Source: an uncultured Nitrososphaeraceae archaeon (lineage in GTDB: Archaea > Thermoproteota > Nitrososphaeria > Nitrososphaerales > Nitrososphaeraceae). From it: a stretch of 64,000 nucleotides of DNA. The first letter of the stretch is position 1. Each line of letters begins with the position of its first letter. Shown here one piece after another: positions 14,264 through 58,108 of the stretch. Location: assembly GCA_963765895.1 (NCBI GenBank), contig CAVXZB010000036.1, positions 1-64,000 of the forward strand. Reading direction: 5' to 3'. The notes under the pieces were generated by a model, which had not been told where the DNA came from, searched no databases, and saw nothing but the letters and a program-made list of their open reading frames with translations. The translations under genes and the position numbers were made by a program.

Positions 14264-14614
14264 TTGCGATTATATATAACGAGTGGAATGAGAAAGGCAA
14301 ATGCTAAGGATGCATGGTATGACGTAGCAGAAGGAGAGTCTCCAGAGAGCTTGATTATCCCATATGAAGACATTCATCAGAAGCAAAGAAGAATTAGTGG
14401 AGAAAGCTTTCCACATTGCTTATTGGAATTATGCGATCATTGTAGATGGTCTTGCTCCTGTTTTAATGTAAAAGGCAAAATCGAAAATTGTCCTCTTTGC
14501 GGTCATCAGCTATCCGAAGTGCCTATGACTATAGAAGAGGTCTCTCAAATTGACTATCGAGTTGGCAGGCCAGGTATGACAATTATATTCGGTAGGCGTC
14601 CACCTCTCAGATGA
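14264..14614 (+). CDS. small Zn-ribbon protein (paralog of 13510-13845)
   Basis: LELCDHCRWSCS...CPLCG..LSEVPM..EE; same Cys layout as its divergent neighbour. Confidence 0.7.
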   Translation: MRLYITSGMRKANAKDAWYDVAEGESPESLIIPYEDIHQKQRRISGESFPHCLLELCDHCRWSCSCFNVKGKIENCPLCGHQLSEVPMTIEEVSQIDYRVGRPGMTIIFGRRPPLR

Positions 14615-37625: not shown

Positions 37626-38135
37626 GTGGAATCTGATGCTATAATGGGACAACGGCTGTCAGCTAAGGAGCATATTCTAGACAAGCACGATTATCAGATA
37701 CTCAATCTTCTGACACAGGGTGCAGATAATAAGGCCATTGCTGAAAAACTGAGAATTCCATTATCCACAGTACAAAGAAGATCAAGGATTCTATTAAGAG
37801 AGGGATATGTTAAGCAGATATTCCAACCCAATTACAAGAAATTAGGATTAAAGAAAGGTTTACTTCATGTATATATACGAACTGGCAATATAAAGGAAAT
37901 GGCAGAAGAACTATTATCAAGAGAGGGTATAATGTCCGCTGGAATTCATGTCGGTAATTCCGATATAGTAGGAGAATTTGTTTATGAAGATAGCGAACAA
38001 TTAGTGGATCTGATTTCACATGTAAAGGAGGTGAATTCGGTAGATAGAGTAGTGTGGTCAGAAGAGGTCTTTCTTCTCCAGGGAAAAGAACATAGCATTC
38101 TTGCAGTCTTGGACAGAATAATTGATAGACAGTAA
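37626..38135 (+). CDS. Lrp/AsnC-like winged-HTH regulator
   Basis: NKAIAEKLRIPLSTVQRRSR; HVGNSDIV; VVWSEEV. Confidence 0.88.
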   Translation: MESDAIMGQRLSAKEHILDKHDYQILNLLTQGADNKAIAEKLRIPLSTVQRRSRILLREGYVKQIFQPNYKKLGLKKGLLHVYIRTGNIKEMAEELLSREGIMSAGIHVGNSDIVGEFVYEDSEQLVDLISHVKEVNSVDRVVWSEEVFLLQGKEHSILAVLDRIIDRQ

Positions 38136-38479
38136 TATGTTTATTAATATCACTCATTGGCTATAGGTAGTCTGTAGTTTAGTCGATCAATAACATAAGA
38201 TTAGATTAAAAAATGATTTTAAAAACATTTAGATAGATTAATTAACTAATTCTAAACGCCCCCTGATGAAGATCATTATGGATAAATATATTATAATGTG
38301 ATAAGATAGATAATTAATTAAATATAATAATTTTAACCAATCAAAGTTCTGTCAATGAAATATCGAATTAAATTTATTGTTATCATTAATTGCCTATCAT
38401 TTTTTGTCATCACTTTACTGGTTTAATCAAAGAAAGCATTAAATAATTCATTTAGTTCTACTCTTCAGGATAAGATAAG

Positions 38480-38660
38480 ATAAGATGATACTCATAATCG
38501 ATGATGATGATGATTATGATATTGCATTTAATCAAGACTAGTTTAGAGAAAGCAGATCTTTCAGTATCATCTTTTACTGATCCGTTAATGGCCTTGGAAA
38601 CGTTTAGGCAGATGCCATCCAGTTATGATCTTGTAATCTCAGATATCCGAATGCTACATC
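38480..38660 (+). pseudogene. response regulator receiver, truncated
   Basis: ILIIDDD...SFTDPLMALE...YDLVISDIRM, after which similarity ends. Confidence 0.7.
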
Positions 38661-38713
38661 TTATATTAAACTTGAAGTATCCTTTTATAGTTAAAATACT
38701 ATTTTTTCTGATA

Positions 38714-39027
38714 ATGCCAAAGTCAGCCGGACCAAGAAAAAGAAGTAGAAGCTCAAGTAGTAATAGTAGAAGAGAGACCAAGGGAAAAGATAAAGAGCTA
38801 TCTGCTATAACAAAAAAGCAAATCGATTCTTTACCAGAACACGCACAGCGTATATATAAAAAACACATGCAAGCTCTATAGAACAATATCAAAATCCTGA
38901 AAAAGAAGAGGTGACAAAAGAGAGTCCAGAGCAGGTAGCTCACAAAGCAGCTTGGGCTGCAGTAAAAAGGCAGTACAAGAAAAAGGGAAGTCAATGGATA
39001 AAGAAAGAAGAAGAAGAGCAATTGTAG
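38714..39027 (+). pseudogene. chaB: ChaB family protein, frameshifted
   Basis: LPEHAQRIYKK [frameshift] ...EQVAHKAAWAAVKRQYKKKGSQWIKK. Confidence 0.8.
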
Positions 39028-39885
39028 TTCTCTATATATAGTAACACTACAAATTGTTAGTGTCATAACTGATAAGTAGCACAAGGAATATGGTTGGATA
39101 TGAGAAAATTGTTAGCTGTAGGTTTATTAATAACAACAATAATGCTTCTGACTGCATTCACTATAGGATCTGCATTTACTACAAGTCCATCCTGAACTGA
39201 ACTATAAAGTAGTTTAATATCATAAGTGCTAATCTTGGACTTGTAGTCTTCAAACTAGACTTTTCTGGCTGCATAATCTTTTTCAGTCTGAATTTTTGCT
39301 TTTGTATCTTGTTCAGTATTTTTTACCTTCTTCGTAATATCTATTATATAGTAACATATCTATAATACAGTACAAAATAAATTATAAGACCTTACTGGCA
39401 TGACTGGCATGACATGTATTTAGATTATTGTTCATCTAAAATAATACAAAGTGTAGTGTATTATAGTTTAAGACCAGATAATGTCATGGATCCATTGTTA
39501 TGAGGATTGATCACATTATCCCCTTGCAGAATAATAAAATGACAAAAAAATAATACAATTGATCTTGTTTGCTATAGATAGATGCTAGTCTCCGCAGTGA
39601 TATGTACTTAATATAATAATGTTCAAAAATAATGTATATGCAGGAATTGACAACATTCAGAGATCACTAATAATAATAACATATCTCAATTATCATACGA
39701 TATTAGAAGCTGTCAAAGGCGACTGCAGGATATACAGAGAATGAATATTCTGAAAAATGCAAATTATACATAAGGTTTCAGAGATGAAAAAGGGTTCCTC
39801 CAAATCTCATCAATATATATAAGTTCAATCAGCAGGCCTCATTAATACATAAAATCACTTATAGGATGATTTGTTTTCTTGTAGC

Positions 39886-40344
39886 TTAAGTTGTCTCTTT
39901 TTTTAATTGACCAACTAACTCTTCCAATACCTGTATTAATCGCTTTTTTTGTGCCTTATCTGTTGTACTCCATTTTTCGCTCGTGGATCGCTTGTGTGCT
40001 AATTTGTATTTGATTCCGGTCATAGAAGTTGTATAACTATTCGCATCTAGTTTTTTAACATTTTGATGCGCGAGGATATACCAGTGATACTCTGTCCCCA
40101 CTGGAACACCCGATCCTTCTGGAGCGTGGCCTGCCCTTCTTTTGTTGACAGCATAAGTAAATTCCCATTTATCTGGCATTATCTTTTTCTCCTTCCATTC
40201 TCCTTTATCATAATACCACGTGTGGCTTCCTCCTACTTTCATGCCAGTATATTTCTTGCCTTCAAACTCTTTGTATTCATTATAAGAGTTCAAGTCATTT
40301 CTTTTAATTTGACCATTTTTTCTTTGAATAGTTTCTTGGCCCAT
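39886..40344 (-). CDS. conserved hypothetical protein
   Basis: YTGMKVGGSHTWYYD...APEGSGVPVGTEYHWYILAHQ; intact ORF. Confidence 0.8.
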   Translation of the reverse strand: MGQETIQRKNGQIKRNDLNSYNEYKEFEGKKYTGMKVGGSHTWYYDKGEWKEKKIMPDKWEFTYAVNKRRAGHAPEGSGVPVGTEYHWYILAHQNVKKLDANSYTTSMTGIKYKLAHKRSTSEKWSTTDKAQKKRLIQVLEELVGQLKKETT

Positions 40345-41000
40345 AAGAAGATCATGTCCATAATAATTTATTAAAGATATAGAATTACGAAGAATACTAC
40401 ACTCCTAAAATCTCTCCTTCTTATATTATTTGCGTTAAAATTAAAATCCAATATATTTTCTAAAGATAATATGAATAGTAGACCAACGGTCAGATAATTA
40501 TCATTTGCAATAGTTTTGCTCATTCTTCATCGGTACAGGAGTAAATGACAGATTTTCCATTTTGCTTTAAATACTTTTAAATAATTTGTATTATAGGATA
40601 ATTATCCAATATCTGTTCGTCATTAGAACTTATTATCTTCTATTTCTCATACCTTTTTAAGCAACTTCAACGACGGCGTTTTCGTTCCAATATAGCAACT
40701 TACCCTGTTTAAGGCATATCGTGAATTTCTGACCAAGAGCTATGTTGTAGACCCTTTTGAGTTATGTTAACTATTCTAAATTCTACGCCGCTACCTTTCA
40801 CGCCAATTCTAATTAGGCCCAAACTTTCCAACCGGTCTAGATAATTATAAACTTCCTCCTTAGGTAATCCACTTTTTGTAACAGGGCAGTATCGCATACG
40901 CCGTTACGGGTATTACCATCTGACATCTCTGCAATGTGACTAGGGATATTTTTCATCTCTTTGCTTATAAACGTAGCAATTAGATTGATTAATTACTGCT

Positions 41001-41726
41001 TTAATTCTTCGACGGCATAGAATGTTGAATCAACTGTTCATAGATTGTTTGAGTCAGTTTAATATTTTCAATCCAAGCTTTTACAAATTCATTATATACA
41101 TTAAGCCATGCGGTATTATGAGCTTGCCAAAACTTTACTCTAATAATGAATGGATTATTATTGTTATTATTAGACAGATTAGAGTGAGATTCTTTATTTT
41201 CGTTGTCATAAACCGTAACAGATTTACCTAAAGAATCTTGTTTTTCAGATTCCTCGTAAACCTGAGCAATATTTGTTTCTACGTTATGCCACTGTTGTTC
41301 TAGCGCCTCCTCTATCGATTGCATTACGCTATGTTCTTTTCCTTTTAGGGTCGGATTTGTGTTAACAAGAAAGCCAGTGGCATAAGAGTTTGTTTTTAAA
41401 CTATTTTTAGGATCGGCATTTCTAATACTATCACTAATACTTGTAGTTAAAGTATCTAGCTGTCGTTTTTCTTTAACGTGTAAGAATACTTTAGCTGTCT
41501 TATCTGGCCTCATATCAGCTACTTCTTTCCTTTCCGACATAGCATTATCACTAGATGAGTCAAATACTTCTGGTTGAGGTGTTGGTGATGATGATGTATG
41601 TAGTGGCGATAAAGATTGCATCGTGATTGCTCCTGGTGATGATGATGATGGTGATGTTGTCTTTTCTTCCTTTTGATTTATTTTTTCAGTCTTTAATTTC
41701 TTCTCTTCTTCCAGTCCTATGCTCAT
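41001..41726 (-). CDS. low-complexity hypothetical protein
   Basis: 241-aa ORF with S/N-rich tracts. Confidence 0.6.
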   Translation of the reverse strand: MSIGLEEEKKLKTEKINQKEEKTTSPSSSSPGAITMQSLSPLHTSSSPTPQPEVFDSSSDNAMSERKEVADMRPDKTAKVFLHVKEKRQLDTLTTSISDSIRNADPKNSLKTNSYATGFLVNTNPTLKGKEHSVMQSIEEALEQQWHNVETNIAQVYEESEKQDSLGKSVTVYDNENKESHSNLSNNNNNNPFIIRVKFWQAHNTAWLNVYNEFVKAWIENIKLTQTIYEQLIQHSMPSKN

Positions 41727-43282
41727 ATCTATATTTCGATTACTATCCTTATTATCAGTTTGATTGTCAGAATTATTTTTTGAGAATCTTTAGCAGTTCG
41801 CTATGATTTGCTTTTAAGCAGCGTAGATACTGTTCGTTTATTCTCATATTACTGGTGGTTTCACTTCTTATCATTATTCATTTTCTATTTCATAAAAAAA
41901 AGCAGCAGCATTTGTTGTCCATATTCTACATATAAGTGCCAAATTGTATAGTTAGTTTTTCAGAACGGATTACTCTAAATGCTAATTAAAATAATTTATG
42001 TAACTCGATTTTATTTCTTTATTCAGATGTAATATGAGCTCTCCTGGTTGATTATCGTCGTCGGTGCTTTCACTGCTTCTTTATGTAGACCATAATGCTA
42101 TGCAAACTATTGGAATTTATCAAAGATGAAATGTTGATCGAAGTAGGTAGACAGGGACTATGTGTGGTTAAGGATTGTTCTTGAGTTAATTGATAGAACA
42201 AATCTAGGTATATATCTTTTATTGAAAGAAATATACTTGTGACTGAATATTTTATAAAATCACTGATTAGAAAATATGAAAACACGATATTTTATTAGAT
42301 GATGGTATGATATCCATAAGCATGTAGTTTCTAAAATATTCGACCATCACAATCATTTACCAAAGGAAAAAGGCTTCAAAGAAAGAACAATACGGTAAAT
42401 AAAAAAATAGAACTGGTGTTTTGATGATTATTTCCTCTTATAGAAATGATTGTGATTGTAAGCTGGAGTACATCATTAATGGGCTGAGTTTATTTGTAGA
42501 TATGCATAATATAGATGATGGAAGAGATTGTTAAGTTTAGTTCAAAATATCTTGGGTTAGTTAATATATCTATGATATTATAATAATACATATTTACTAT
42601 TAATTAAGTTCAGCGCTATTAACATATAACGTCACGGTGAAAAATTGATCTAAAAAAGAAAAGGAAATAATTGAATCATTTATCAATGTAACGTCCTAGT
42701 TATATTGACAATATTGGCTTAGCTTTATGTGTGTACAACGTCCCGATAGTGAACTGTAAAAAGAAATTTAACACTTTTATCTTTGACTGCAGGCATATCT
42801 TGTTACTAAAATAAAGTAGTTATAAGCTGAGATAATTTACAAATACTCGATTCATGAATGTATACATTAAACTTGTTATATCTGATTTCTATATTTGGGC
42901 TAGCAGGATAATCGTGTTTTTATAAGAATGGAAAAAAGTTAAAACAATAATTAGCATAATACATTAGGATCAGTATGCTACTTGGAAGACTTTTGCACCT
43001 AAACTCATTAGTTTCTGTTCAGATACAGACACTTTCTAATGATGATCTTAATGATTTATCATACGCTAGAGTGAATGTTAAAGCCTTTTCTTCCTTTATT
43101 TACCCATTCGTTGAAAATAATTAATAGACATGCGTAATAAATATGTCGTGACAATCATTATAGTGTATCACCTTAGAATTATCAACGAAATCAGTGATTC
43201 TCTACAGTTAGAATGTACTCGACTTTCATAAACCATATTTATGAACAGTACATTCTCAAGCTATTCATTTTTGAGATGAGCT

Positions 43283-43684
43283 CTAAGCAGAATATGCATC
43301 AGAAGGAGTCAATGTTGCAGAGCCAGTAACATACTCTATTTGAGGATCGTCAATTAATAATTTGTCAAGCTCATCAATATACATGCGCATTACTTTGAAT
43401 CTGAGCATTCTGTCTTCTTCCATTGAAGGAACACGTTGATATCTCTTGAATATCAATTCCTTTTTAGCCTCTAGATTTGTTCCTGCTGGATAGACTACCT
43501 TGAGCATCACACTCCCTTCCCAGTCTTTGTACATACCTTCTAGGTGTAAAATATCCAATACTAACTTTTGATCTACCTTGGGAAATAAGGTCTGCACATC
43601 GTGAAGAAGATTTTGGTATGAAGATTTCAATTTTGAGGAGGATAATGACATCTTTGTATATTCACCAGCACGATCGATTGTCAT
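43283..43684 (-). CDS. hypothetical protein
   Basis: Intact 133-aa ORF. Confidence 0.7.
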   Translation of the reverse strand: MTIDRAGEYTKMSLSSSKLKSSYQNLLHDVQTLFPKVDQKLVLDILHLEGMYKDWEGSVMLKVVYPAGTNLEAKKELIFKRYQRVPSMEEDRMLRFKVMRMYIDELDKLLIDDPQIEYVTGSATLTPSDAYSA

Positions 43685-43726
43685 ACAAATAAGAAATGGA
43701 TAGCATATAATTTAACTATTTATAAC

Positions 43727-43972
43727 TTATTCAAATTTATAATTTTCATCTACAAATTCTGAGGTGTTATTCAAATGTACAACTCCGCTTTCGAAATCCT
43801 TTACAGATGATGTCGGAATAAGGTACTTGTCTGGAGTGATCGGTCCGGATGTAACTAGAAGTTTTTCGGATTGAACTGAAGAAATAATCCCGATTTCCTT
43901 ACCCTCGCTAGAATATACAGGTTTGTTTACCAAGTTTTGTAGTTCATTAATCCATTTATTTTCAGAGCCCAT
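43727..43972 (-). CDS. PRC-barrel domain protein
   Basis: LVNKPVYSSEGKEIGII...YLIP..V. Confidence 0.75.
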   Translation of the reverse strand: MGSENKWINELQNLVNKPVYSSEGKEIGIISSVQSEKLLVTSGPITPDKYLIPTSSVKDFESGVVHLNNTSEFVDENYKFE

Positions 43973-44339
43973 GATATATACTAAGGATCTAAAACATCGC
44001 TTATATCAATTCTAGTTTAGGGGTATTTGAGATGTTAAGCCAAGCTATGAACTAAACCAAATTGATAGACTTTATATTCAATTACAACCCACGGTCTTAT
44101 CTGGTACGTGATTTGATCTTTTAGATTCAGTATAACTTGAACTATAGTTCGAGATGCATTGTAAAAACCATGCTTTGAATACAGTTAGAGCTTTCTAAAC
44201 GCATGATCCGCTATACATGTTGAGAACCAAGATATGTCAGGCTAGCGAATACTATCTAACAGCTTCTCCTGAAGGCATTTACCTAAGAATAAAGGATGCC
44301 ATATAAAGTCAAGTTAACACAGATTTCGCAAACATCAAT

Positions 44340-44640
44340 ATGAGTTATATATAATAAGTACCGATTTTTTATAGTATCAATAACCCTTCTTGTAGTACTG
44401 CCTATTCCTCTAATTGTTGAGGTTAATCTGTGACTGGCCATCACTATTACATCAAATTGGCTCTGATTTGCTACCTTAATTATTTCGCCTACAGCACTAC
44501 CTGTATGACTCTCAAACGCAATATTCTTTATTATTCCAGCTTTTTTTTATATAATCTTACCTTCTCCACTATTATTCCCTTCAATAACCTTGGGTAAAGA
44601 ATCTTACCTTACATTTTCAAAATGAATAACAAGAAGTGAT
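44340..44640 (-). pseudogene. universal stress protein (UspA) remnant; absent from ORF track
   Basis: TGSAVGEIIKVANQSQFDVIVMASHRLTSTIRGIGSTTRRVI matches the USP C-terminal motif. Confidence 0.75.
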
Positions 44641-45133
44641 GATATACGAGTAAATAGTGTAAAAGAATCCACTGAATTAGGCCACGAGCTAATAAAGTAG
44701 AGATTCTATGACTACAGATATTTTATTCAAAAATTTAGTCACACCGTGTCTATATAATATTTATCTACAGTGTAGAATCTCTAGATTATATTATAAAGCC
44801 TATCACGGTTGAAATGGTCAGTTTTGTTTGTATGTCTTGCAGATAAGAATCATGTACATCACAAGACCAGCACTCATTAAAATAACAAGTTCATAAATAT
44901 TATTGTTGATGATTCATAAGTGACAGTTTAATCTTGGATTTTAATTATTTTTTGCCGTGGTCAATAACATACTTAATGATAAAAAGTCAATTAATTTGGG
45001 ACAACAATATAAAGGGGAAAATAGAAATCAGTTTATAAGACTGTCTTGTAATTCTGGCCTATGAGCCAATTCTAGGTAAAGAAGGGATTTCAAAGATGTT
45101 ATGTTTGTTTGTTATCTAAACTGAAGTAAGGAA

Positions 45134-48100
45134 TTAACGTTTTCTAGCCTCTATAAATGTAAGGTGTTGTTTTATTTGTGTAGCATTATCATCTATATCA
45201 AAGCCATTTCTTTTATTACATTTCTTAGATCTGATAACCTACCGCCTTGATCTAATTGGTTCGTTGTCTCTGCTATAAACAACCAACCTTTTGATACTAA
45301 ACACCTGTTTGCTTCTGCTAAGTAATCTCTCCAGTTTCTTCCCATGAGCGAGAGTGAAAATACCACTATGTCCAACTCTCCATCTCGTATATGTTTTGAT
45401 AAGTCTTTAATATCGCATGCTATAATCTTATCATTCATAATATTGCTGTGATCAAAACTATACACCTTATTCTCCCGTAATAGATCTGCTAATTCTGCTC
45501 TACCACATCCAAAATCTCCTATTTTTAGTTTCATAACAATATGTTTTGGAATGTTTAGTCCAAAGTTGATCTTATCAGCAATTATATTCACAGGATTAAA
45601 TCCCCAAACTGTCTTTCTTGTATCAAGTTTCGCAAGATAATCTGGTAATACGTTAGGATCTTGCTGTATTCTCTCATGGGTTATCTGTGAATATTCTTCA
45701 TTAATCTGTTTGTTCAGTACTCCTAATTCACTAATCTTTCTTTTTGCATGTTCTAATTCTGATTCTGTCGAAGTTAGTTGCATATTAAGATCCCTTCTTT
45801 TAAAAGTAGAGATCTCATTTCTTTCTAGTCTTTCTAACCACTTTACTAATTCATTATACATCTGTTCTTTACTCTGTAAGAGGCCTATTGGAATTATTCC
45901 GTCTACAGCACAATCCGCTAACATTCGTTTAATTTCAATACCTAGCCATTTTTCTTCGTCATATTCATAGCCAGAATTGATGCTTTTATGACTTGAACTT
46001 TGACAGTATGTTTCTGTCCCATTCTATGTAATCTACCAATTATCTGTCTGAATTGTGTATTCGTCCAAGGTAGTGTATTTATTATAAGGTTACTACATAC
46101 TTCCTGCAATCCGTCAACACCTATAGAAATAGGACGTGAAGCAATTAACACTTGTATATTCTGTTTAGGATCAATGAATTTCTCTAATGTGTCATTAGTA
46201 TCACCTGTGTATTGTATATATGTAAGTCGTACTTTTTTAACAGCATCAACTAAAATTTCATTTACTATTCCTGTGACATATTCTGTATAGATTATTGTCT
46301 TACCTTCTATTCTTTTAATTATTTCTGATATTCTAGCCTCAGTTAGTATTTGTTCCATCAGTAACGGATGTCTCTTAAGATCTTTCGCTTTAATATGAGA
46401 AGGCTTTACTGCTATGACATTTACTTCTCTATATTCTACAGTTGTCTTATATTCTGGCACTTGTCTTATTGATATTAATGATAGTTTTACATGTAATGTC
46501 ATAGCATTAAAAATATTTGGTCTATTTGAAAGATCATCATAGACTTTATGTGTTATGTATGCTAGTAATGACTTACCTTCTTCTAGATCATTTATCGCAG
46601 GAGTTGCAGACATTCCTAATGTTTTAACTCCTTTATTGCGCTCTCTAGCCTCAGTTAATAGATTTCCTAACACTTCACGTCTTTTACTCTCACCACTATC
46701 GTTGCGTTTCTTTATGAAATGTATTTCATCTAGCACAATAAAGTCAATCTTCTGTTTGACTAGCATTGATACTAGATATTTAGAATTGCTCTGACTAAAT
46801 TTATCATAGTTCAATACAAGATACATATTGCACGCTTTTCTGTTCTGCTCCCAGTAAAATGCAGGTTTACCCATTATTACTCTAGAGTTAGGAAATACCT
46901 CTACAATGACATTAGACCATTGCTCAACTACATCATTAGGACAGATTATTAAAGTAACTTTGCTATCTATGACACGACTTGCTAGGATAGCCGATAATGT
47001 TTTGCCTGTACCTGTGTCAGAAAAATTAGCAAAATGCGGTAGCTGATAGACTTTAGAAGCAACATATCGTTGCATGAGATTGGGTTTATATCTGAAAGAA
47101 TAATCCTCTGGTAATCTCGATGTTGTTGCTAACATTGTGTCATATTCTAACAAAAATATATTTCTTACTTCATCATGGAATTTCTTTCCGGTCAACCGTT
47201 CCTGTCTCATTTTTTCAACAGTTTTGATATTTCCATTCTCTTTTTGTGATTGACCATTTACTGAATCAGCAAAAACATTTTTCCCTAGTTTAGTTACTTC
47301 ATTAAATACGAAGAATCGTAATAATTCCTCATCCTCACAAATTGATTCTAAAACTGGATTAGATAACTGCTCAAGTATTTCTTCAACAGACTAAAGGTGT
47401 TCTGATCTTAATGGATCATTATTATCTTCTTTTTCTAATTGATTAACGAGTTGTTCAGTTGTTACTGGTTTTAGTTCGTCGTTAGGAGAAGAAATGTCTG
47501 GAATAGTTTGTTCTTCCCCGGGTTTAGAATCAGAGTTTACAAAGTCCTCCAAAGCCTTTCGTTGTTTCTCGGTCTGAAGTCCCAGCAGGAGATCTTTCAT
47601 AAGTGGTGCGAAGCGATTATGGCCTTGCAAATTCAATATTCCTTTTGCAAGACAGACGTGATATCGTTCACTGTCAGACATCCCATCCAATACTTTGTTT
47701 TCGAGCATATCTCTGACTATTGTCTTAACTTTAGATATTGACATGCTCGTAATAGCATATGCAATAGTACCTGTACCTAACCAATCTCCCCAGTTCTTCC
47801 AATCCTTTTTATATACTTCAGCAGGGTTAGATGGTATGTCTTTTGGCTTCTTTTCAGATTTACAATATTTCCACCATTCACTCTGATTCTTTATTCCTAA
47901 GGAATGTACAAATTTCCTAGCTTGTTCAAATGAGCTGTATTCTCTATTAAATGAGGCTACTACTCCTGTACCTAACCATCTCCCCAGCCTTTCCATCCAT
48001 CTTTTTTATATTCTCTGTCAGGATGAGCTGGAATGTCCTCTGGTTTTTCCTTCCATTTCGCATATTCCTTTTTTGTCTGTAGATTCTGATTTCGGACATA

Positions 48101-48749
48101 CTCTTTGGCCTCAAGAAAAGGTCGCCACATTCTTGTCCGTTGAAAACCTAGGAAATCAAAATAATCGATCCAACCCTTATTTTTGTATACTCGATCTGGA
48201 TCACTTGGTATTCCTATCGGTTTCTCAGATCTCAAATAATTTTTAAACTCTAAAGAGCTTTTCAGACCTTTTGAAAGTACTTTTGATCTTGCTTGTTCAA
48301 ATGGCAGACCAAATTTTTGCCGTAAAATGACCGGCCGTATCACGTCCTTTCTTTTTTTGAGTACCGAGAAAATCAGGCCAATCAATCCAACCTTTGCCCT
48401 TATACTGTAGTTGAGGGTCGCTTGGTATATCAGCTGGTCTATTTCCAGAACTAGCGTATCTCTTATAATCTTCAATATTTTTTAGTCCTAACGAACGTAC
48501 AAACTCTTTTGCTTCTTCAAATGGCCTAAACTTCCTCTTGAAAGTTGCGGTATTTTGAGTACCGAGAAAATCAGGCCAATCAATCCAACCTTTGCCTTTG
48601 TATATTTTATTAGCATTACTTGGTATATCTGATGGTCTCTTTCCAGATTTAGCATACTCATACCATTCTATAGTGCCCTTTAATCCTAATGAACGAACGA
48701 ACTTTCTAGCTTTCTCAAATTTCCTCCAAATTTTATCCTTTGCTTTCAT
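45134..48749 (-). pseudogene. ~1,200-aa fusion: five Trp-rich repeats (integrase-repeat-like) + SF2 helicase + Rrp8-like SAM methyltransferase
   Basis: Track ORFs 48297-48749, 47972-48475, 47391-47996, 45942-47210 and 45193-45924 are joined by frameshifts near 48355, 47978, 45972 and 45210 and an in-frame TAG at 47391-47393; helicase motifs TGTGKT, DEIH, SAT, QIIGRLHRMGQ; MTase motifs DFGCG and VFSLSLMG. Confidence 0.85.
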
Positions 48750-48886
48750 TTTGCCTCACTAGCTACTTTAATATGTGTGTAAACATTTTTCTGACATAGC
48801 GGTAAAGAATATGATAATCCAAGTATTCTAAAATCGTCCTTAGTATAACCAATTTACTAATCTGAAAATAGACAAATATTCATGTT

Positions 48887-49694
48887 CTATTCTCTACCTT
48901 CATTAAACAATACTTTAACTAATCTTAATGCCAATTGTAACTCTTTAATTCTATCTTTGTTTTTCTCTTTGCCTTCTGTTGTGACCATAATCAGGTTCTC
49001 AATAATATTCTTAGTTGGCAGCAGATAAGGAATTGCATCGTGGAGAGAAATACTGTGTGTCACATAAGGATTCTTAGTATCACGATAAATGAAACCGTTA
49101 TTGCAATCTAATATTATTGAACTTTCATCTTTGATTCCCACTTCAAAACTTACATTGTATCTTTGTAACGCCAACTTTGCAAAATCGAATAAAGATTCAT
49201 ATGCTTCTATTAGATCCTGTTTAGTCTTCCCTTTCGGATCATACAATATCGATTTAAGAACTTGCTCTGTTATCTCAGATATATTGATTCCCACTTCCTT
49301 TGCCCTTGTAATAACATCTTTGCTTATTCCGAGAGTAAGTTTTTGTTTTGAATAAGTAGTACCGAGCCAATCTCCCCAGCTTATCCAATTATACTTATAC
49401 CTCATATTTGGATGGACAGGTAAATTATGTGGTTTATTCCCGGATTTACAATATTCTATCCATTCGCTCTGGCTATTTAATCCGAGTTGATGTACAAATT
49501 GCCTAGCTTCCTCAAACTGTAGAAAATGCTCTTTTTTGATCTGTAATCATTCCAATACCGAGCCAATCTCCCCAGTCTTTCCATTCCCACTTATATGCTG
49601 CTGGGGGATTCGAAGGTATATCCGGTGGTTTTTTTCCAGATTTAATATATTGTTGCCAATCATTAGTACCTTTTAATGATTTAGAACCCAACAC
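48887..49694 (-). pseudogene. Trp-rich repeats (1.5-2 units) fused to an RHH/CcdA-like domain and helical tail; frameshift near 49525
   Basis: KPPDIPSNP..YK..WKDWGDWLG; FEEARQFVHQLGLNSQSEW...WISWGDWLG; then KQKLTLGISKDVITRAKEVGINISEITEQVL. Confidence 0.75.
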
Positions 49695-49741
49695 GTATTA
49701 CACACGCGTATAGTTATATATACGTATTATTCATACGTGTT
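49690..49741. promoter_or_regulatory. ACGTAT-type repeat cluster with 9-bp inverted repeat
   Basis: AACACGTAT (49690-49698) and ATACGTGTT (49733-49741); internal CGCGTATA and TACGTATTA. Confidence 0.5.
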
Positions 49742-49902
49742 AAGTATGAAGCGTTGTCTGACCAATGAATATGCCAAGTACTGATCGCATAAACTTTGAG
49801 GATCTGAAAATGCAATCATTTGCAAAACCAAGATTTATAATTCAAAAGATATCGAATGTAAGTCTGTGTCTCTCGATTTGTGGGAGTAATATTCATATTA
49901 AA

Positions 49903-50244
49903 TTATACTATAGTAGGTTCGAAACGATGTGTTATCGAGTATATTAAGTAGTCAATTTTTGGTTCTGTCAACTCTCCGTCGGTTTTCCAGTCTTTTCTAG
50001 ACTGTAAATTTTCGTCGGATCTGAATGACTCTATCTCATCCATTTGTTTATGAATCCGATCAGCCATCTGATATAATGCATCTCGATTTGGTAATGTTAT
50101 ATTATTCTTCTTTGCATATTCTAATATGAAGAATAGAGTTCCGCCGACTTGATCATATAATTCCTGAACTAGTCGTTTCATACGGCGAACTCGTTTCCAT
50201 TCTGTGAGAATCTCTTGCCAAGCGTCAAATTGTTCATTAGGCAT
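49903..50244 (-). CDS. small helical passenger protein reading through the left TIR
   Basis: 113-aa ORF; ...DGELTEP is encoded by the TIR and the stop codon lies in flanking DNA. Confidence 0.65.
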   Translation of the reverse strand: MPNEQFDAWQEILTEWKRVRRMKRLVQELYDQVGGTLFFILEYAKKNNITLPNRDALYQMADRIHKQMDEIESFRSDENLQSRKDWKTDGELTEPKIDYLIYSITHRFEPTIV

Positions 50245-50682
50245 GGACCCTCTTTATCTTTTACCTCATCTTCTCGATATCTTTTCTCCCATCGTATAAA
50301 ATCTGTTATGTCGTCGAGTCCTAACAGTCTCTCTCGTAATGTTTGAACCTCTAATTCAGTGTTCGCTTTAGTACTGGCAATATCCTTTTTCCATTGCTGC
50401 CTTCTGAATATGAAATTCGGTGGGTAAGTTATCAACAAATTTCTCAAATCTTGTCGCTGTAAAAGAATGATCATTTAATACCTGCATGAATACTGTGGAA
50501 TGTTTGAAAAGTAGAGATAGCATAGCCAGTGAATCCCAACTGAGAAACTCCAGAAGAATCCGAGTTTCAGCATCAATATTCCTTGACTCGACCAGTTTAT
50601 TCTTAATATCATTTCGGCTCTTTATTAGATCATTCGAGATTTCTCGATAGTGTGAAACTATCTCGTCATCAAACACAACCAT
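50178..50682 (-). pseudogene. coiled-coil passenger protein, apparently frameshifted near 50385
   Basis: ORFs 50368-50682 and 50178-50474 join at an A-tract (AAMEK/DIAST); start overlaps the stop of the AbrB-like gene. Confidence 0.55.
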
Positions 50683-50918
50683 TAATATTCAGCCCTCTTG
50701 CGTCTTTGTTTCATAGAATACCGAGTTAGTTCTACGGAGCCAGTGTCATCAGATTTCTTTGAGACAATCGTCGTACGTTCGTTACCGGATGTATTCATCT
50801 TCCATTCTAATTCGTCTTTATCAGATAGTTCTAGAAACTCGGCTATGCCTTCTGGTATAGTGGTTTTAAGCGACTTCGTTCCCTTTTTTGCAGAAGCCAC
50901 TCTAGTAATCAATCCCAT
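50682..50918 (-). CDS. AbrB/MazE/SpoVT-type DNA-binding protein
   Basis: MGLITRVASAKKGTKSLKTTIPEGIAEFLELSDKDELEW; start reassigned to Met at 50918. Confidence 0.85.
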   Translation of the reverse strand: MGLITRVASAKKGTKSLKTTIPEGIAEFLELSDKDELEWKMNTSGNERTTIVSKKSDDTGSVELTRYSMKQRRKRAEY

Positions 50919-50932
50919 TATCAGTCGTCTAT

Positions 50933-50988
50933 TATATCGACCGATGGATATATTCTTATCCATCGAAGTATATATCGACCGATGGATA
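50933..50988. promoter_or_regulatory. operator-like repeats in the divergent abrB/transposase promoter
   Basis: 18-bp direct repeat TATATCGACCGATGGATA (50933-50950 and 50971-50988) with an inverted core TATCCATCG (50957-50965) between. Confidence 0.7.
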
Positions 50989-52097
50989 CGACGAATGAGA
51001 GAGAATCACTAGGTCGGATTATCGCTGATAAAGAGAAGGCTGTCAAGAGATACAGCGAATCTCGATATGTAGTTAACTCCCAGTCTGGAAAGGATAAATA
51101 CAAAGTCATTCTAACTAAGATCGGATGGACGTGTTCATGTCCTGACCATAAGTTTCGCGGAGTTAAATGTAAGCACATCTATACTGTCGAAATCTCTTGT
51201 GCTATACGTAGTCAAGTAGAGGTAACTCGAATTGAACCTATCGTTAACGTTCATGAATGCATTTATTGTAAGTCGCTGAACATCGTGAAAGATGGCTTAC
51301 GTCATAACAAAGCCAGCGATATTCAGAAGTTCAACTGCAAGTCATGTAGTAGATATTTCACTATTAACATAGGCTTTGAGAAGATGAAACATAATCCTCA
51401 AGGGATAGCTACGGCAATGCAGTTGTATTTCGCCGGCGAATCCCTACGTAATACCTCCCACTCATTGAAACTAATTGGAATGGATGTAACGCATCAGACA
51501 GTGTTCAATTGGATCAAGAAATACACAACGCTCATGCAGACATATCTTAATCGAATAACATCCAACGTTGGTAACGCTTGGAGAACAGACGAATTGTATG
51601 TGAAGTTCAAGGGTAATATGAAATACATGTATGCATTGATGGATGATGAAACGCGTTTCTGGATAGCGCAACAAGTTGCAGACACAAAGTTTACCGCTGA
51701 CGTAAGACTGCTATTTAGAAAGGCAAAGGAGATTGCCGGCAAAAGGCCGACAGTATTGATAAGCGATGGCGCAAGGAACTACGACGATACATATAGACAC
51801 GAATTCGCTACCATTAGAAGCCCGCGGACTAGACATATTCGCCATATTCGATTACAAGGCGATCATAATAATAACAAGATGAAAAGGCTGAACGGAGAGG
51901 TTAGAGACAGAGAGAAAGTTATGAGAGGTCTGAAGAAGATGGATACTCCAATTCTTACTGGGTATCAGTTATTTCATAATTATATCAGACCTCATATGGC
52001 ATTGGAAGGAAAGACTCCGGCTGAAGTTAGTGGAATTGAGATTGGAGGTGAGAATAAACGGAAGACGATTATAGAGAATGCATCTAAAGATCTCTAA
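50982..52097 (+). CDS. IS6-family DDE transposase with N-terminal SWIM finger and Zn ribbon
   Basis: CSCPDH...CKH (SWIM), CIYC...CKSC, HTH, WRTDELYV, ISDGA; NNKMKRLN has Lys where the catalytic Glu is expected. Confidence 0.92.
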   Translation: MDTTNERESLGRIIADKEKAVKRYSESRYVVNSQSGKDKYKVILTKIGWTCSCPDHKFRGVKCKHIYTVEISCAIRSQVEVTRIEPIVNVHECIYCKSLNIVKDGLRHNKASDIQKFNCKSCSRYFTINIGFEKMKHNPQGIATAMQLYFAGESLRNTSHSLKLIGMDVTHQTVFNWIKKYTTLMQTYLNRITSNVGNAWRTDELYVKFKGNMKYMYALMDDETRFWIAQQVADTKFTADVRLLFRKAKEIAGKRPTVLISDGARNYDDTYRHEFATIRSPRTRHIRHIRLQGDHNNNKMKRLNGEVRDREKVMRGLKKMDTPILTGYQLFHNYIRPHMALEGKTPAEVSGIEIGGENKRKTIIENASKDL

Positions 52098-53743: not shown

Positions 53744-54985
53744 CTATCTTCTTCTAGATAATAATTCATTAAATATGGTTTTAAACCCATCGATATAGTG
53801 TGAATTAGAGAATTTATTTATACCATTTCTCATCTTGATTCGTTCTGTATCTGGCAGATGGTTAAAAATACAAGTTATAATTTCCGCAGCGTGCTCTATT
53901 GTATTAAATTGATATTCTTGTGGAACAAACTCAGCAGGGCCACTGTCTTTTGGGACCACTGGGATTAGTCCAGCAGCCATAGCCTCTACTACTGTCATAC
54001 CAAAATGTTCTCCTACCATTGGATGAAAATATATTCTTGATTTTTGTATGATAGAAAGAAGCTTATCCAAGCTAGCATTAACTTCAAATGTAACATAGTC
54101 AGTCAAACCAAGTTCCAGAATCATCTGTTTGAGCCCTAAGTAATAATCAAGAAAATAATGGTAGAGGTTTCCAACAATTTTCATTCCTTTGGCTATATTG
54201 TTATCTTTTAATACTTTTGCAAGTTTGATTGCATTTTCAAGCTTCTTATGAGGGGCGATTCTGGCTATTACAAGAATGATATCATTTCTTTCATTATCGC
54301 AATTTGCCATCAATGTACAATTACGAAAAGTCTCAACATCTATCGGCGGGCTGAGTATGTAAATATTGTCTAATCCTAATGCATTAATTATTGCCCTACG
54401 ACTGAATTCAGAATTAGTAATCACTGTAGAGTTTCTCATCAAGTTCCAATATCCATAGTTTATTATTTCAAAACATTCATTTTTTCTGCGAACCAGAACC
54501 TTAGTTTTTAAATGCTTGGAATTATTGATATTTTGATAATCCATATTATCTAAAAAGCCATTTGAGCTTTCTGTCATACCAAGATCTGTTTTTAGATAAT
54601 CAATATTTTCAAATTCTATATGAAATTTTGTACTAGGAAAGTGACAGTAAGTAATAGAATTATCTTTTGAAAAAGATGAATGATAGTAAGGAGCTGCATC
54701 GCCGTTAGTATTTATTGTAATATCATAATCGTACTCTTTATGATGTTGCTGTCGCTGTTGCTGGAGTTCTTCCATTATATTTATGACATTAATTTTGTTT
54801 GTGCTTTTCATAACTGAGACAAGATTTTTACCATATGAATTTTCTAATTTTGATATATTAGGGGTCTTCAAGGTTGTAACATCAAAGTCAATTCCGATTT
54901 CTAATAATGCCTGCATAGTCACAAGTGACACTCTTTCAGCACCTCCACAGGGATTAAAATCTCCATGTATAACATTTGCTTTCAT
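53744..54985 (-). CDS. GT4 glycosyltransferase (Alg11-like)
   Basis: GGAERV, YCHFP, NSEFS, EHFGMTVVEAMAAG. Confidence 0.9.
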   Translation of the reverse strand: MKANVIHGDFNPCGGAERVSLVTMQALLEIGIDFDVTTLKTPNISKLENSYGKNLVSVMKSTNKINVINIMEELQQQRQQHHKEYDYDITINTNGDAAPYYHSSFSKDNSITYCHFPSTKFHIEFENIDYLKTDLGMTESSNGFLDNMDYQNINNSKHLKTKVLVRRKNECFEIINYGYWNLMRNSTVITNSEFSRRAIINALGLDNIYILSPPIDVETFRNCTLMANCDNERNDIILVIARIAPHKKLENAIKLAKVLKDNNIAKGMKIVGNLYHYFLDYYLGLKQMILELGLTDYVTFEVNASLDKLLSIIQKSRIYFHPMVGEHFGMTVVEAMAAGLIPVVPKDSGPAEFVPQEYQFNTIEHAAEIITCIFNHLPDTERIKMRNGINKFSNSHYIDGFKTIFNELLSRRR

Positions 54986-55518
54986 ATTAGACAGCCTATT
55001 CTACAAAAGACCAAATTCTGTCACCATCTTTTTCATTGGTATTTTCTCTTTCTTCATCAGGCCACAAAGTATATAGAGATAAGCATTACACGAGATAGGT
55101 CTGTATAGTTAAGATCACTTCTCCACGTAGTGAATTAAGTCATAATGGATATGTATAACGGATATCAACCTTGCCACAAGTTTCCAGCTTGCAAGTTAAG
55201 CCGATAAGATCTAATCAAAACCAAAAGAATATATTAGTTAGTCAAATTCGGGGCTATTCATATTTACTAATGATGATGGGATAGTCAGTCAGGAATAAGC
55301 GATGCAGTATATGGATCTTCAACAATCTTCGATTTGAGGGATAATAAAGTGTAAACCATAAGCGGTCTCTGTAATTATTATTAAACATCAATGCATATAC
55401 TGATTGGTGTTCGCAAACGAAAGTATTGGTTATAAGTAGCCCTAATTTACCTACTCCGCCTCCCGATTAATTTCATCTCGAAACTTGAAGATCGAATGGA
55501 GGTCTGGAAGCCATAGTT

Positions 55519-56535
55519 ATGTGGGTTTCTAAAAATATAGCCAGAAAATCTCATGATGTGACTTTGATATCATCTAGAGGTTCTTCAGGTAAGGTAAAAG
55601 AACTGCCATCCAATCTACACATAATAGAAACGATAAAACCTTCTTGGGAAGGAATGGCTGCTGAAGAAGCACACTATCTCAGGTACAAGGAACTTCTGGA
55701 GAAAGAATATGGAAGTGGAAATGGAATAGTATGGGATAATACATGGCACTGCTTTTCCTATCTGTCAGCAAAGAAATTTCCAAAGATGAAAATAATTCAT
55801 ACTAATCATGGTACCGTAGAACGCCAAAAAGTTCCGGTTAAACAATTGCGATATCCTAGGTATATTGGACTATCTAGTCTTCATGCTAAATATATGTCGT
55901 CTATTCTTAAAATACCAGTTAGGTATGTTCATCATGGAATTCCTCTACCTCCGATAGAGGAACTAAAAAGTAATTATAACAATAAGAACGGAGGGTACCT
56001 TCTCTCGATAAATAGAATAGTCAGAGAAAAAGGAATTGAAGACTCTATTGATTTAGCTATTAGAACAAGAAATGCTATAAAAATAGCTGGTGACGATATT
56101 CATGTACGAGATCTTTCATATGTACAAATGATAAGAGAAAAATGCCAAAATTCCAATGGTTTGGCAGAGTACATTGGACTTGTAGACAATAAAACAAAGG
56201 CAGAATTAATTAAGAAATGTAAAGCTGTTATTGCTTGCCCTAAGCCCACCTGGATAGAGGCATTTGGATTATATGCTGTAGAAGCTAATGCTTATGGTAA
56301 ACCGGTACTTGCTCGAGCTAATGGAGGACTAAACGATATAATTGTAAACCAAATCAATGGATTTCTAGCTAGAACTCCACGAGAGTTAGAAGAATATGTT
56401 GAGAAGATCCACGAATGTTCGCCAGAATCTTGTAGAGACAGGGTTGAAAGGCATTTTACAGATGAAATAATGACTAAAAATTATCTTCAGATCTTCGATA
56501 AAGTAATAGAAGACGAGCCCACCTTTCGATGGTAG
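55519..56535 (+). CDS. GT4 glycosyltransferase; N-terminus probably disrupted upstream
   Basis: RIVREKG, EAFGLYAVEANAYGKPV; upstream fragment VLVISSPNLPTPPPD* near 55420-55470. Confidence 0.85.
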   Translation: MWVSKNIARKSHDVTLISSRGSSGKVKELPSNLHIIETIKPSWEGMAAEEAHYLRYKELLEKEYGSGNGIVWDNTWHCFSYLSAKKFPKMKIIHTNHGTVERQKVPVKQLRYPRYIGLSSLHAKYMSSILKIPVRYVHHGIPLPPIEELKSNYNNKNGGYLLSINRIVREKGIEDSIDLAIRTRNAIKIAGDDIHVRDLSYVQMIREKCQNSNGLAEYIGLVDNKTKAELIKKCKAVIACPKPTWIEAFGLYAVEANAYGKPVLARANGGLNDIIVNQINGFLARTPRELEEYVEKIHECSPESCRDRVERHFTDEIMTKNYLQIFDKVIEDEPTFRW

Positions 56536-56971
56536 TAAAGAAGAGGATTGAATTAACAATCGAATTTTTATCTTCAAAATCTTAAAGGCTAAGCGGCCAT
56601 TCATTATTAAATATGTCTTAAAGAAAATTAACTACTATACAAATAGTTGATTTACATAGAAGAAATACATAGTATTAAGATCTTTCAAATTCCAGAAGAT
56701 GAATATCCAAAGTAAAAGGCTTACGTTTAAGACCAATCAAATGTTTTAGATTGTTACTATACGGGCCGTGGTAGTAAGGGGTATTTACTAGCGATACATA
56801 CCCAAGAGGATGAAATAGTGATAATAAGCAAGTTGAAATACGGTTTGGTTAATACAAAACAGAAACACCCAGCTACTAAATTGTAGCTCATCTCAGTAAG
56901 AGGTCCTACACAAGCTATGGATAGACCTCTAAACTTTAATACCAAGTATTTTAAGACAAAATGCGAAAGGA

Positions 56972-58108
56972 TTATTGACAGGATATATGATACCAATAAT
57001 AATAACAAAGATGTATTATGATAATAATGAAATTCATAAAAAGGCAGAAGATTGTTATATTTTCTCCACGATCGGACGGCCAGAATTGCGAGCAATAAAT
57101 AAAGCCTTCGTATTCAAGTTGCGCTGCTTTATTTAATAGCTCATCAGCTAGTTCGTTTTCCATTTCTCGCTTCATAGATTGGGCCAATCTTTTATAGAAT
57201 TTTGCTTTAATCGTGGGTATTTCCTCAGGCTTTAGGATACCTCTTGCAAGCGCAATTTCAATTGCCTTGGAAAACCCATCAGTATCAACTCTTGCTTTTA
57301 TTTGATTAAAATTGCTCTGACCTATTCTGGTTCTTGAAGTTTGATATTTCATAAAACTTGGTATTCTGTATTTAGTCGGGATTGATGAAGTATATTTAAA
57401 GTTGGCTCCAAAAGCTGACATTCTCATCCAAGAATGAAAGTCTTCTGACGCTTTCTCATCCGGGAAAGGGCATTGATATGCAAATTTTGTACGTACAGCT
57501 GTAGAGGAGGTTATATTAGTAATCCCAGTTTCTGTTCCCATTTTTATCCAGATGTTATTGCCTTCCAAGGGGTTCTGCATATGAGATTCCAATATTTCTA
57601 AAATCGGTGAAGAAATTTTTTCAGCAGGTGTTAATCTATTATTCTCATCTATTACTTCAAAGGTAGAATATACTACATCGATTTGAGGCTGTTCCAAAAA
57701 TATTTTCTTGACCACTTCCAGCCGCTTTGGGTGAGATATGTCATCTGAATCATTAAAAAGTATTATACTATGATTACGTTCTAATGCTGCGAGAATCCCT
57801 ACATTTCTACTTACTCCAGGACCCACATTTCGCTCCAAAAAAATGATGTCAATCTTTGGATAGTAATTTTGCTTTAATTTCATCAAGTAATCGTAGTTTT
57901 CTTTACTAAGATGCATATCGACTACAATAATTGCACTCCAGTCTTCATCAGTTTGTAAAAACAATCCTTCGATTGTATCAGCAATTACTAGCTTTTTTCT
58001 GTCATGTTGATCATCATATCCATTTGCATGATATGGAATAATAAATGCACTGGAAAGCTCTTTACTATTGCTTGTTTTTATCATTTTGAGCTTGTTACTC
58101 CTCCTCAT
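56972..58108 (-). CDS. GT2 glycosyltransferase
   Basis: FIIPY, NVGPGVSRNVG, FNDSDD, SEDF. Confidence 0.88.
   Translation of the reverse strand: MRRSNKLKMIKTSNSKELSSAFIIPYHANGYDDQHDRKKLVIADTIEGLFLQTDEDWSAIIVVDMHLSKENYDYLMKLKQNYYPKIDIIFLERNVGPGVSRNVGILAALERNHSIILFNDSDDISHPKRLEVVKKIFLEQPQIDVVYSTFEVIDENNRLTPAEKISSPILEILESHMQNPLEGNNIWIKMGTETGITNITSSTAVRTKFAYQCPFPDEKASEDFHSWMRMSAFGANFKYTSSIPTKYRIPSFMKYQTSRTRIGQSNFNQIKARVDTDGFSKAIEIALARGILKPEEIPTIKAKFYKRLAQSMKREMENELADELLNKAAQLEYEGFIYCSQFWPSDRGENITIFCLFMNFIIIIIHLCYYYWYHISCQ

Follow-up and report, generated by a model that had tools for sequence, protein, structure and literature searches.

A 64,000-nucleotide stretch of DNA from an uncultured Nitrososphaeraceae archaeon (hereafter the window) carries on its minus strand, from position 48749 to 45134, what is very probably a recently inactivated pseudogene of a protein family in which a Swi2/Snf2-type ATPase is joined to a methyltransferase of the Rrp8/nucleomethylin type, in this copy behind an N-terminal array of INT_rpt repeats. 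Five open reading frames (ORFs) make up a single frame here, which would run to ~1,205 codons on read-through and is interrupted by four 1-base frameshifts (FS1 to FS4) and one in-frame TAG. The family is large and widespread and appears to be unstudied. We favour the view that it is a horizontally spreading family of single-polypeptide, DNA-tracking methyltransferases of the genome-conflict type; a DNA-directed conflict function of the intact members is put forward more tentatively. The gene has no activity left in this genome, whichever substrate the intact members have, and the window copy itself is a case of ordinary gene decay.

The broken gene and its lesions

An earlier note, made from the letters of the window, had joined the five ORFs into one hidden gene, and this reconstruction was confirmed, coordinates included, by the ORF list and by tblastn against positions 44001-50500, in which the intact homologs P0001, P0002 and P0004 are collinear through all five ORFs. 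A last piece of 30 residues (45137-45226) lies in a further frame in the same search and ends at the TAA at 45134-45136. The ORFs, with frames given as the end coordinate modulo 3, are:

48297-48749, minus strand: ORF 1, 150 aa, frame 2
47972-48475, minus strand: ORF 2, 167 aa, frame 1
47391-47996, minus strand: ORF 3, 201 aa, frame 2
45942-47210, minus strand: ORF 4 (helicase), 422 aa, frame 2
45193-45924, minus strand: ORF 5 (methyltransferase), 243 aa, frame 0

The features of the gene, with superfamily 2 (SF2), S-adenosylmethionine (SAM) and hidden Markov model (HMM) abbreviated, are:

45134..48749, minus strand: whole pseudogene, with five INT_rpt units, N-terminal domain, Snf2-like ATPase, helical linker and Rrp8-like methyltransferase (ORFs, tblastn, sequence)
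48348..48734, minus strand: INT_rpt units 1 and 2, start codon ATG at 48747-48749 (custom INT_rpt HMM, 2 units, E=8.8e-24)
48300..48320, minus strand: FS1 near 48308, one extra base compared with public contigs (three-frame view, contigs)
47978..48307, minus strand: INT_rpt units 3 and 4, in the second frame (tblastn, custom HMM)
47970..47985, minus strand: FS2 near 47976, within the WGDWLG motif of unit 4 (sequence, three-frame view)
47760..47984, minus strand: INT_rpt unit 5 (Pfam INT_rpt E=2.5e-4, 21.7 bits, below the cutoff of 26.5; custom HMM E=8.3e-31)
47211..47759, minus strand: conserved helical N-terminal domain or linker of the core, holding the in-frame stop (85% identical to P0001 throughout)
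47391..47393, minus strand: in-frame TAG, Gln in P0001 (sequence, homolog comparison)
45975..47210, minus strand: Swi2/Snf2-type SF2 ATPase with TGTGKT, DEIH, SAT and QIIGRLHRMGQ (Pfam ResIII, DEAD, SNF2-rel_dom, Helicase_C)
45968..45982, minus strand: FS3 near 45975, AATTCTGG, where homologs read 'ASI' directly followed by 'SGYEYD' (tblastn, three-frame view)
45205..45975, minus strand: helical linker and Rrp8/nucleomethylin-type SAM methyltransferase with DFGCG, SFDH and VFSLSLMG (PF05148 E=1.4e-25)
45134..45226, minus strand: FS4 at ~45205 (AAAGAAATGG) and displaced C-terminal tail 'NGFDIDD...FIEARKR', ending at TAA 45134-45136 (tblastn, three-frame view)

At FS1 the window frame ends in '...AKIWSAI' and a stop, against '...KFGLPFEQA' in the continuing frame; at FS2 it reads 'GWGDG' and a stop against 'WLGTG', with GATGG where the remaining repeat units have GATTGG. 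FS3 gives 'KASILAMN..' and a stop against 'SGYEYDEEKWL', and FS4 'VIKEMALI' and a stop against 'NGFDIDD...EARKR' with its own stop. The residue at the TAG position is Gln in P0001, an 84%-identical homolog, and the frame stays open for the 60 codons from the TAG to the helicase ATG (open frame of 482 aa, ORF of 422 aa), as had been noted earlier. Since the pseudogene is 84-85% identical to P0001 along its length in the tblastn comparison, without a large deletion, its inactivation appears to be recent.

For a check of the lesions, Logan contigs of four soil-metagenome runs (X1-X4, all from one study) were aligned to positions 45100-48800. In two or three runs each, contigs bridge FS2, FS3, FS4 and the TAG without gaps or mismatches: FS2 is covered in X1, X2 and X4 and the TAG in X1, X2 and X3, while FS3 is unchanged in X1, X3 and X4 and FS4 in X2 and X4. 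These four lesions are therefore reproducible. In X2 and X3 the contigs are one base shorter at 48308, which restores the frame ('AKIWLPFEQARS', matching the repeat consensus), so that FS1 reflects either strain variation or faulty assembly. The count of four frameshifts and one TAG in the earlier note thus holds for three of the frameshifts and the TAG, and a check at all five sites, made here on contigs, did not bear out FS1.

That the gene is intact and its lesions are sequencing or assembly errors, or sites of programmed recoding (frameshifting and TAG read-through), is hard to credit. FS2, FS3 and FS4 each look like the loss of one base from a short run of T or A, an error-prone context, FS1 is missing from the contigs of two public runs, and the genome is a draft metagenome-assembled genome (MAG) of 88 contigs; the contigs used for the comparison are moreover shallow (depth ~2-5), are contigs rather than raw reads, and possibly come from the samples behind the genome assembly. 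However, the three frameshifts and the TAG are identical in separately built contigs, the TAG (CAG in the homolog) arose by substitution rather than by slippage in a homopolymer, truncation and a frameshift also affect the adjacent INT_rpt gene, and broken or remnant copies occur in other lineages. Five recoding events in one gene would also be implausible, and pyrrolysine or programmed recoding was rejected because hundreds of homologs have plain frames. It is also very unlikely that the pieces work as separate genes after fission, as a 422-aa helicase and a 243-aa methyltransferase. Both ORFs begin with ATG and keep all catalytic motifs, and the databases hold 158 methyltransferase-only proteins of 133-426 aa, one of which (P0271) is found on 27 contigs at 82% identity. 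Yet the helicase ORF is cut at FS3 and loses the last conserved core segment and a brace-like helix, the methyltransferase ORF is cut at FS4 and loses a conserved C-terminal strand, and most of the short methyltransferase matches are fragments, lying on short contigs or carrying a partial Helicase_C; P0270, 99% identical, is the same broken gene called elsewhere. The hidden gene of the earlier note thus does not survive as a working gene, the copy being in all probability a dead pseudogene.

The fused domains and the family of intact homologs

In the window, the helicase part scores 33.9 bits with Pfam SNF2-rel_dom (cutoff 24.9), and ResIII and DEAD score similarly. All motifs quoted in the earlier note were found (TGTGKT, DEIH, SAT, QIIGRLHRMGQ, DFGCG and VFSLSLMG); those of the helicase are invariant across the family, and the catalytic motifs of both enzymes are invariant in 41 diverse members. 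Motif VI is of the type QxxGRxxRxGQ, which we take to be that of Swi2/Snf2 proteins. The nearest PADLOC and NCBIfam models are DrmD, RapA and HmaA, all with partial matches only and far below threshold; the best PADLOC match (E=9e-13) is partial and covers helicase motifs, and NCBIfam gives 46 bits for DrmD_b (cutoff 950) and 35 for RapA (cutoff 576). RapA is also the sole sequence match of the helicase in the PDB (E=0.003). A structure was predicted with AlphaFold2 (AF2) for P0117, an 883-aa member without array, together with 41 diverse homologs (predicted local distance difference test score, pLDDT, 82.4; predicted template modelling score, pTM, 0.70); P0117 is 47% identical to the window helicase, and the model is that of a homolog, not of the broken window protein. 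In a Foldseek search of this model against the PDB, the top 50 matches are all Swi2/Snf2 remodelers except 2ZFU, with Mot1 first (E=3e-17), followed by Ino80, Chd1, ISWI, CSB, PBAF, Rad54 and SsoRad54, a Snf2 core from Sulfolobus. The model places helices after motif III and before lobe 2, and its N-terminal core domain, which matched no Pfam family, is predicted to be helical. Because its structural neighbours are of Snf2 type, the modelled 'helicase' is best described as a Swi2/Snf2-type ATPase. Snf2 ATPases are translocases on duplex DNA that do not unwind it; by family membership, the motor would thus be a duplex-DNA translocase and not an unwinding helicase.

The methyltransferase ORF of the window matches PF05148 (Methyltransf_8) with 90.9 bits against a cutoff of 27 (E=1.4e-25), whereas generic methyltransferase families reach at most 24 bits, the runner-up Methyltransf_11 scoring 23.6. 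Its sole sequence match in the PDB is 2ZFU, the methyltransferase domain of human nucleomethylin/RRP8 (E=2.6e-16), and this alignment takes in the helical extension ahead of the Rossmann fold. In the structural comparison, the P0117 model and 2ZFU superpose with a template modelling score (TM) of 0.78 and a root-mean-square deviation (rmsd) of 2.0 at 31% identity (Foldseek rank 15). The ORF carries IGDFGCG and VVFSLSLMG, and D758, G760 and G762 are invariant among the 41 diverse members. Neither a nuclease nor an N6_Mtase family was found by Pfam in the window pieces, P0068, P0004 or P0117. The assignment to Rrp8/nucleomethylin, the exclusion of an NPPY-type DNA methyltransferase and the absence of a nuclease, all proposed in the earlier note, are thereby upheld, and a generic small-molecule methyltransferase is disfavoured by the same scores. 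Rrp8 makes m1A645 of 25S rRNA, and N1-adenine methylation of large-subunit rRNA is known only for the yeast and human enzymes (PMC3553958).

The five repeats seen earlier were found by the custom HMM and by alignment, at ~60 aa per unit and with pairwise identities of 19-66%. The array is basic (58 K+R against 39 D+E in 286 aa) and contains 15% aromatic residues. An alignment of 44 two-unit segments revealed no code of the kind found in transcription activator-like effectors (TALE), that is, no hypervariable position pair in otherwise identical repeats, and the repeats are ordinary diverged tandem domains; this lends no support to a specificity set by the repeats, which the earlier note had suggested. 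Their kinship with the Pfam integrase repeat, proposed in the earlier note, is probable. Two window pieces score 21.7 and 21.4 bits with INT_rpt (PF14882), below the cutoff of 26.5; the intact homolog P0068 reaches 83.4 bits, and the custom HMM finds seven units at the locus, including the neighbouring gene (E 3e-14 to 8e-31). Two units modelled with AF2 give a pLDDT of 88 and four short helices per unit; among the viral models of BFVD, this fold matches one unnamed protein (E=8e-8) and, weakly, SF2 helicases of giant viruses. A faint overlap of the I-HmuI NUMOD-like kind appears in precomputed Pfam lists.

The same helicase-methyltransferase core is found with other N-terminal parts: with INT_rpt in Simkaniaceae, Parachlamydiales and Chloroflexia, with six to nine DUF4379 treble-clef zinc fingers in cyanobacterial, chlamydial and Thermoplasmata loci, with DUF723 plus DUF4379 in Polaribacter, and without any array in forms of ~880 aa. 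INT_rpt in turn is attached to other enzymes. Among the best 120 of 1751 longer INT_rpt proteins, 56 carry an Mrr_cat_2 restriction nuclease, nearly all of them with SF2 helicase domains, which makes this the commonest INT_rpt architecture among these matches (in P0402 the order is nuclease, helicase and nine INT_rpt units), and 10 carry PF05148; INT_rpt-helicase proteins without a methyltransferase occur in Planctomycetota. The swapping of arrays on one core, together with the attachment of INT_rpt to DNA enzymes, supports, but does not prove, the idea that the arrays are exchangeable DNA-binding modules, and the 'modular reader' of the earlier note gains support from it. In the Nitrosopumilus single-cell genome L016, 31 INT_rpt units lie in several ORFs within 17.8 kb (8.4-17.8 kb), on both sides of an 874-aa helicase-methyltransferase core.

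Intact fusions are numerous. A search for longer proteins matching the helicase piece (E<=1e-3, >=740 aa) returned 824 fused-size homologs of 740-2110 aa, and 116 of the 120 listed carry PF05148 together with helicase families, many also PF14882. P0068, a 1,226-aa protein of Nitrosotenuis, is an intact example. A single ancestral gene of ~1,200 aa, as suggested earlier, is supported: hundreds of intact homologs normally have the parts in this order (repeats, linker, SF2 helicase, helical linker, SAM methyltransferase), and fusion, not a set of separate unlinked genes, is the rule. With P0117 as query against 1.84 billion representative sequences, phmmer gave 3350, 1618 and 546 matches at E<=1e-3, 1e-10 and 1e-30, the last corresponding to at least 546 clusters at 50% identity, and single alignments cover both helicase and methyltransferase. 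In contigs of one genome per species, 90 relatives were confirmed and 80 loci kept. Their hosts include Nitrososphaeria, Chlamydiota, Cyanobacteria, Planctomycetota, Verrucomicrobiota, Chloroflexota, Myxococcota, Gemmatimonadota, Binatia, Dependentiae, Bacteroidota and others. Three plasmid copies are known, one of the DUF4379 form in Crinalium and two in Rhodococcus, one of the latter adjoining an FtsK/SpoIIIE transfer gene. The 'Atlas' label of the family as commonest in Uroviricota was set aside, being without backing from isolate phage genomes (no match among GenBank phages).

Within the class the gene is rare, patchy and often decayed. Of 300 further genomes sampled, three have the core at E<=1e-30, and in one of these it contains an internal TGA; strong matches occur in three of 40 relatives, and one of six genomes of the same genus has the gene. 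Damaged forms include a copy with one internal TGA (G089:C1:270531-273095), a second copy with four stops (G020:C61:13732-14879), a 544-bp methyltransferase remnant at 86% identity (G005:C29:27184-27721) and a 74-aa remnant (G023). The term 'undescribed' of the earlier note stands in part: no paper on the fusion architecture was found, PF14882 appearing only in lists, in a search that covered few subscription journals and no supplements, and no PADLOC or NCBIfam model covers the family; its members are, however, already in databases under such names as 'integrase repeat-containing protein', 'zinc-ribbon domain-containing protein', 'DEAD/DEAH box helicase family protein' and 'superfamily II DNA or RNA helicase'. 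A paper on thaumarchaeal mobile elements describes one element with an SF2 helicase, without identifying it as a Snf2-Rrp8 fusion.

Known systems and the possible function of intact members

The closest parallel in design is the DarB-type 'DNA methylase-helicase dyad' of phage and plasmid polyvalent proteins (Iyer et al. 2017, PMC5512222). That paper makes no mention of Rrp8 or of a treble clef. Like the dyad, the fusion combines a Swi2/Snf2-type ATPase and a SAM methyltransferase in one polypeptide, is found on mobile DNA and lacks a nuclease. The dyad's methyltransferase, however, is described there as EcoKI/TaqI-like and N6-adenine-specific, N-terminal of the helicase, with LPD36 and in phage or conjugative context, whereas the fusion has a C-terminal, Rrp8-like methyltransferase, a different N-terminal domain and repeat arrays; membership was rejected on the PF05148 methyltransferase, its C-terminal position and the absence of a GenBank phage match. 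With Rrp8/nucleomethylin the fusion shares sequence, predicted fold, DxGCG, the VF(C/S)LSLMG strand and the preceding helical extension, but Rrp8 itself is a eukaryotic nucleolar protein without helicase or repeat arrays. DrmD of DISARM, RapA and HmaA are the nearest profiles to the motor and have the same type of motif VI, but the scores lie far under the DrmD and RapA cutoffs, and membership of DISARM, Hma or other PADLOC systems was discarded on the partial helicase matches, the lack of a recurrent neighbour and the lack of partner genes nearby. The INT_rpt-Mrr_cat_2-SF2 helicase proteins, such as P0402, have the same array and an SF2 helicase; they differ in their PD-(D/E)xK nuclease, their C-terminal array and another helicase lineage (weak matches). 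Type ISP and Type III restriction-modification (R-M) enzymes likewise join a helicase-like motor to a methyltransferase. Their methyltransferases are N6-adenine enzymes of NPPY/F type. They also have a nuclease and a target-recognition domain, and the fusion has none of these three; R-M types I, III, ISP and IIG were rejected on the absence of nuclease and N6_Mtase families in the proteins listed above. The fusion is rated as a variant among the motor-coupled methyltransferases of mobile DNA, outside the DarB dyad, DISARM and the R-M types.

The gene is self-contained and its context is mixed. Clustering of 1186 ORFs from 81 loci gave no neighbour family in more than six loci and thus no conserved partner. 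In a scan of the first 150 of 227 flanking ORFs (49 loci) against Pfam and PADLOC, the commonest family is PIN (three cases), followed by Uma2, SRAP and Phe-tRNA synthetase (two each), with all others found once; among the PADLOC matches, DarT/DarG, type I R-M, PbeA and a number of candidate systems occur singly. No linkage to ribosome genes was seen in the flanking ORFs scanned.

For the intact members, the basic and aromatic-rich array may hold the protein on DNA, where the Snf2 motor would track the duplex without unwinding it or remodel a protein-DNA complex. Through tracking, the methyltransferase at the C-terminus could reach its substrate, most likely DNA bases, processively and with ATP coupling, and the outcome might be to mark or protect the DNA of a mobile element or of the host, or to disable or poison foreign DNA. 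This logic parallels that proposed for the DarB dyad, in which ATP-driven tracking along double-stranded DNA lets the methylase modify DNA (PMC5512222). The scattered distribution, the plasmid copies, and the insertion sequence (IS) transposase and short repeats flanking the locus are in favour of a conflict role of this kind.

Several observations weigh against it. The flanks of the relatives give no clear defence-island or mobile-element signal and include ordinary housekeeping genes. An INT_rpt-Mrr-helicase counterpart lies near only one of the 81 loci, and this family is absent from five archaeal genomes with the gene and from the present genome; an R-M-like pairing of the two families is therefore not supported. 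The family has no tblastn match in 50,697 GenBank phage records, and IMG/VR gives just one strong match, on a 266-kb contig. The predicted fold of INT_rpt has no match in the PDB (best Foldseek E=1.7), and the enzyme functions of family members are predicted from sequence and models. The defence role suggested in the earlier note does not follow from these data, as there is neither a conserved partner nor a clear defence island nor a PADLOC family. We know of no DNA N1-adenine methyltransferase. Characterised Rrp8 enzymes, moreover, methylate N1 of adenine in rRNA and not in DNA (PMC3553958).

This last point leads to an RNA-directed reading of the same family, which we consider rather unlikely: the methyltransferase would place an Rrp8-type m1A, or a mark on another base, on rRNA or nascent RNA, and the motor would either remodel RNA-protein particles or act on transcription complexes in the manner of RapA or CSB, with ribosome modification for toxin or antibiotic tolerance as a possible payoff. 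The only characterised relatives of the methyltransferase are indeed rRNA m1A enzymes, and rRNA m1A resistance methyltransferases occur in bacteria (PMC3553958). The likeness to Rrp8 extends to the family-specific helical extension before the Rossmann fold, and RapA is both the only PDB sequence match of the helicase and an NCBIfam neighbour. On the other hand, Snf2 ATPases are duplex-DNA translocases and all top structural neighbours of the motor are Snf2 proteins; the arrays are common to Mrr-nuclease/helicase proteins, which are DNA enzymes; and, found in three of 300 genomes, the gene is much too uncommon to be a housekeeping modifier of rRNA, nor is it linked to ribosome genes.

A bolder form of the DNA-directed proposal, which must be called improbable, is that intact members are one-protein systems in which an exchangeable array loads the Snf2 motor and the Rrp8-type methyltransferase writes a mark on the Watson-Crick face of DNA bases (such as N1-methyladenine) that blocks foreign replication or marks the mobile element, the family being the prokaryotic source or sister of eukaryotic Rrp8/nucleomethylin. 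To our knowledge, N1-methyladenine in DNA has so far been regarded only as damage; eukaryotic Rrp8/nucleomethylin sits on rDNA chromatin. In any case, the family couples a motor of the chromatin-remodeler type with a type of methyltransferase known only from eukaryotic rRNA modification, and its plug-in arrays, INT_rpt and DUF4379, are families without an assigned function, the former common to a nuclease-helicase family. Identification of the substrate would assign a function to three 'unknown' Pfam families, would test for enzymatic N1-adenine or other unusual DNA methylation, and would inform the origin of Rrp8/nucleomethylin.

Surroundings of the locus and the host genome

The window belongs to contig C36 of the 4.9-Mb draft MAG, which is 88% complete, and related loci carry the names Nitrososphaeraceae or Nitrosocosmicus. 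The helicase has no second copy in this genome, and all seven INT_rpt units found genome-wide with the custom HMM are at this locus. On its upstream side the pseudogene is followed by:

48887..49697, minus strand: second broken INT_rpt gene directly upstream, with a 5'-truncated unit, a frameshift, a second unit, a CcdA-like ribbon-helix-helix (E=1e-5) and a C-terminal part
50682-50963, strand opposite to the transposase: small AbrB/PrlF-like ORF ahead of the transposase
50982..52097, plus strand: IS6/IS240-type DDE transposase with an N-terminal SWIM zinc finger (Pfam DDE_Tnp_IS240 E=1.2e-13, SWIM E=4.2e-5)

No relative of the C-terminal part of the second INT_rpt gene occurs in the rest of the genome or among the loci retrieved. 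Glycosyltransferase genes lie further along from the transposase; within this glycosyltransferase region, 55271-58000 is 99% identical to the end of a second contig of this genome (C18:43263-45991), through duplication or assembly redundancy. A relative of the same genus (G004), ~96% identical, matches the flanks at 38001-44767 and 53945-57999 and nothing between; these matches sit on two contigs that end there.

The region around the locus is rich in IS and short multi-copy repeats. A ~100-bp repeat at 44160-44258 resembles a miniature inverted-repeat transposable element (MITE); at least 18 copies, ~83% identical, are spread over many contigs of this genome, and others occur in genomes of the same genus. 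The segment 41021-41934 is likewise multi-copy: sequences 65-77% identical to it lie at many sites of this genome and of others in the genus, and the ORF here (41001-41726, 241 aa) matches no Pfam family. In positions 1-16000 of the window, stop-free stretches of 100 codons or more make up just 31-34% of the sequence; the figure for the whole genome is 60%, and low coding density is therefore general and not particular to the locus.

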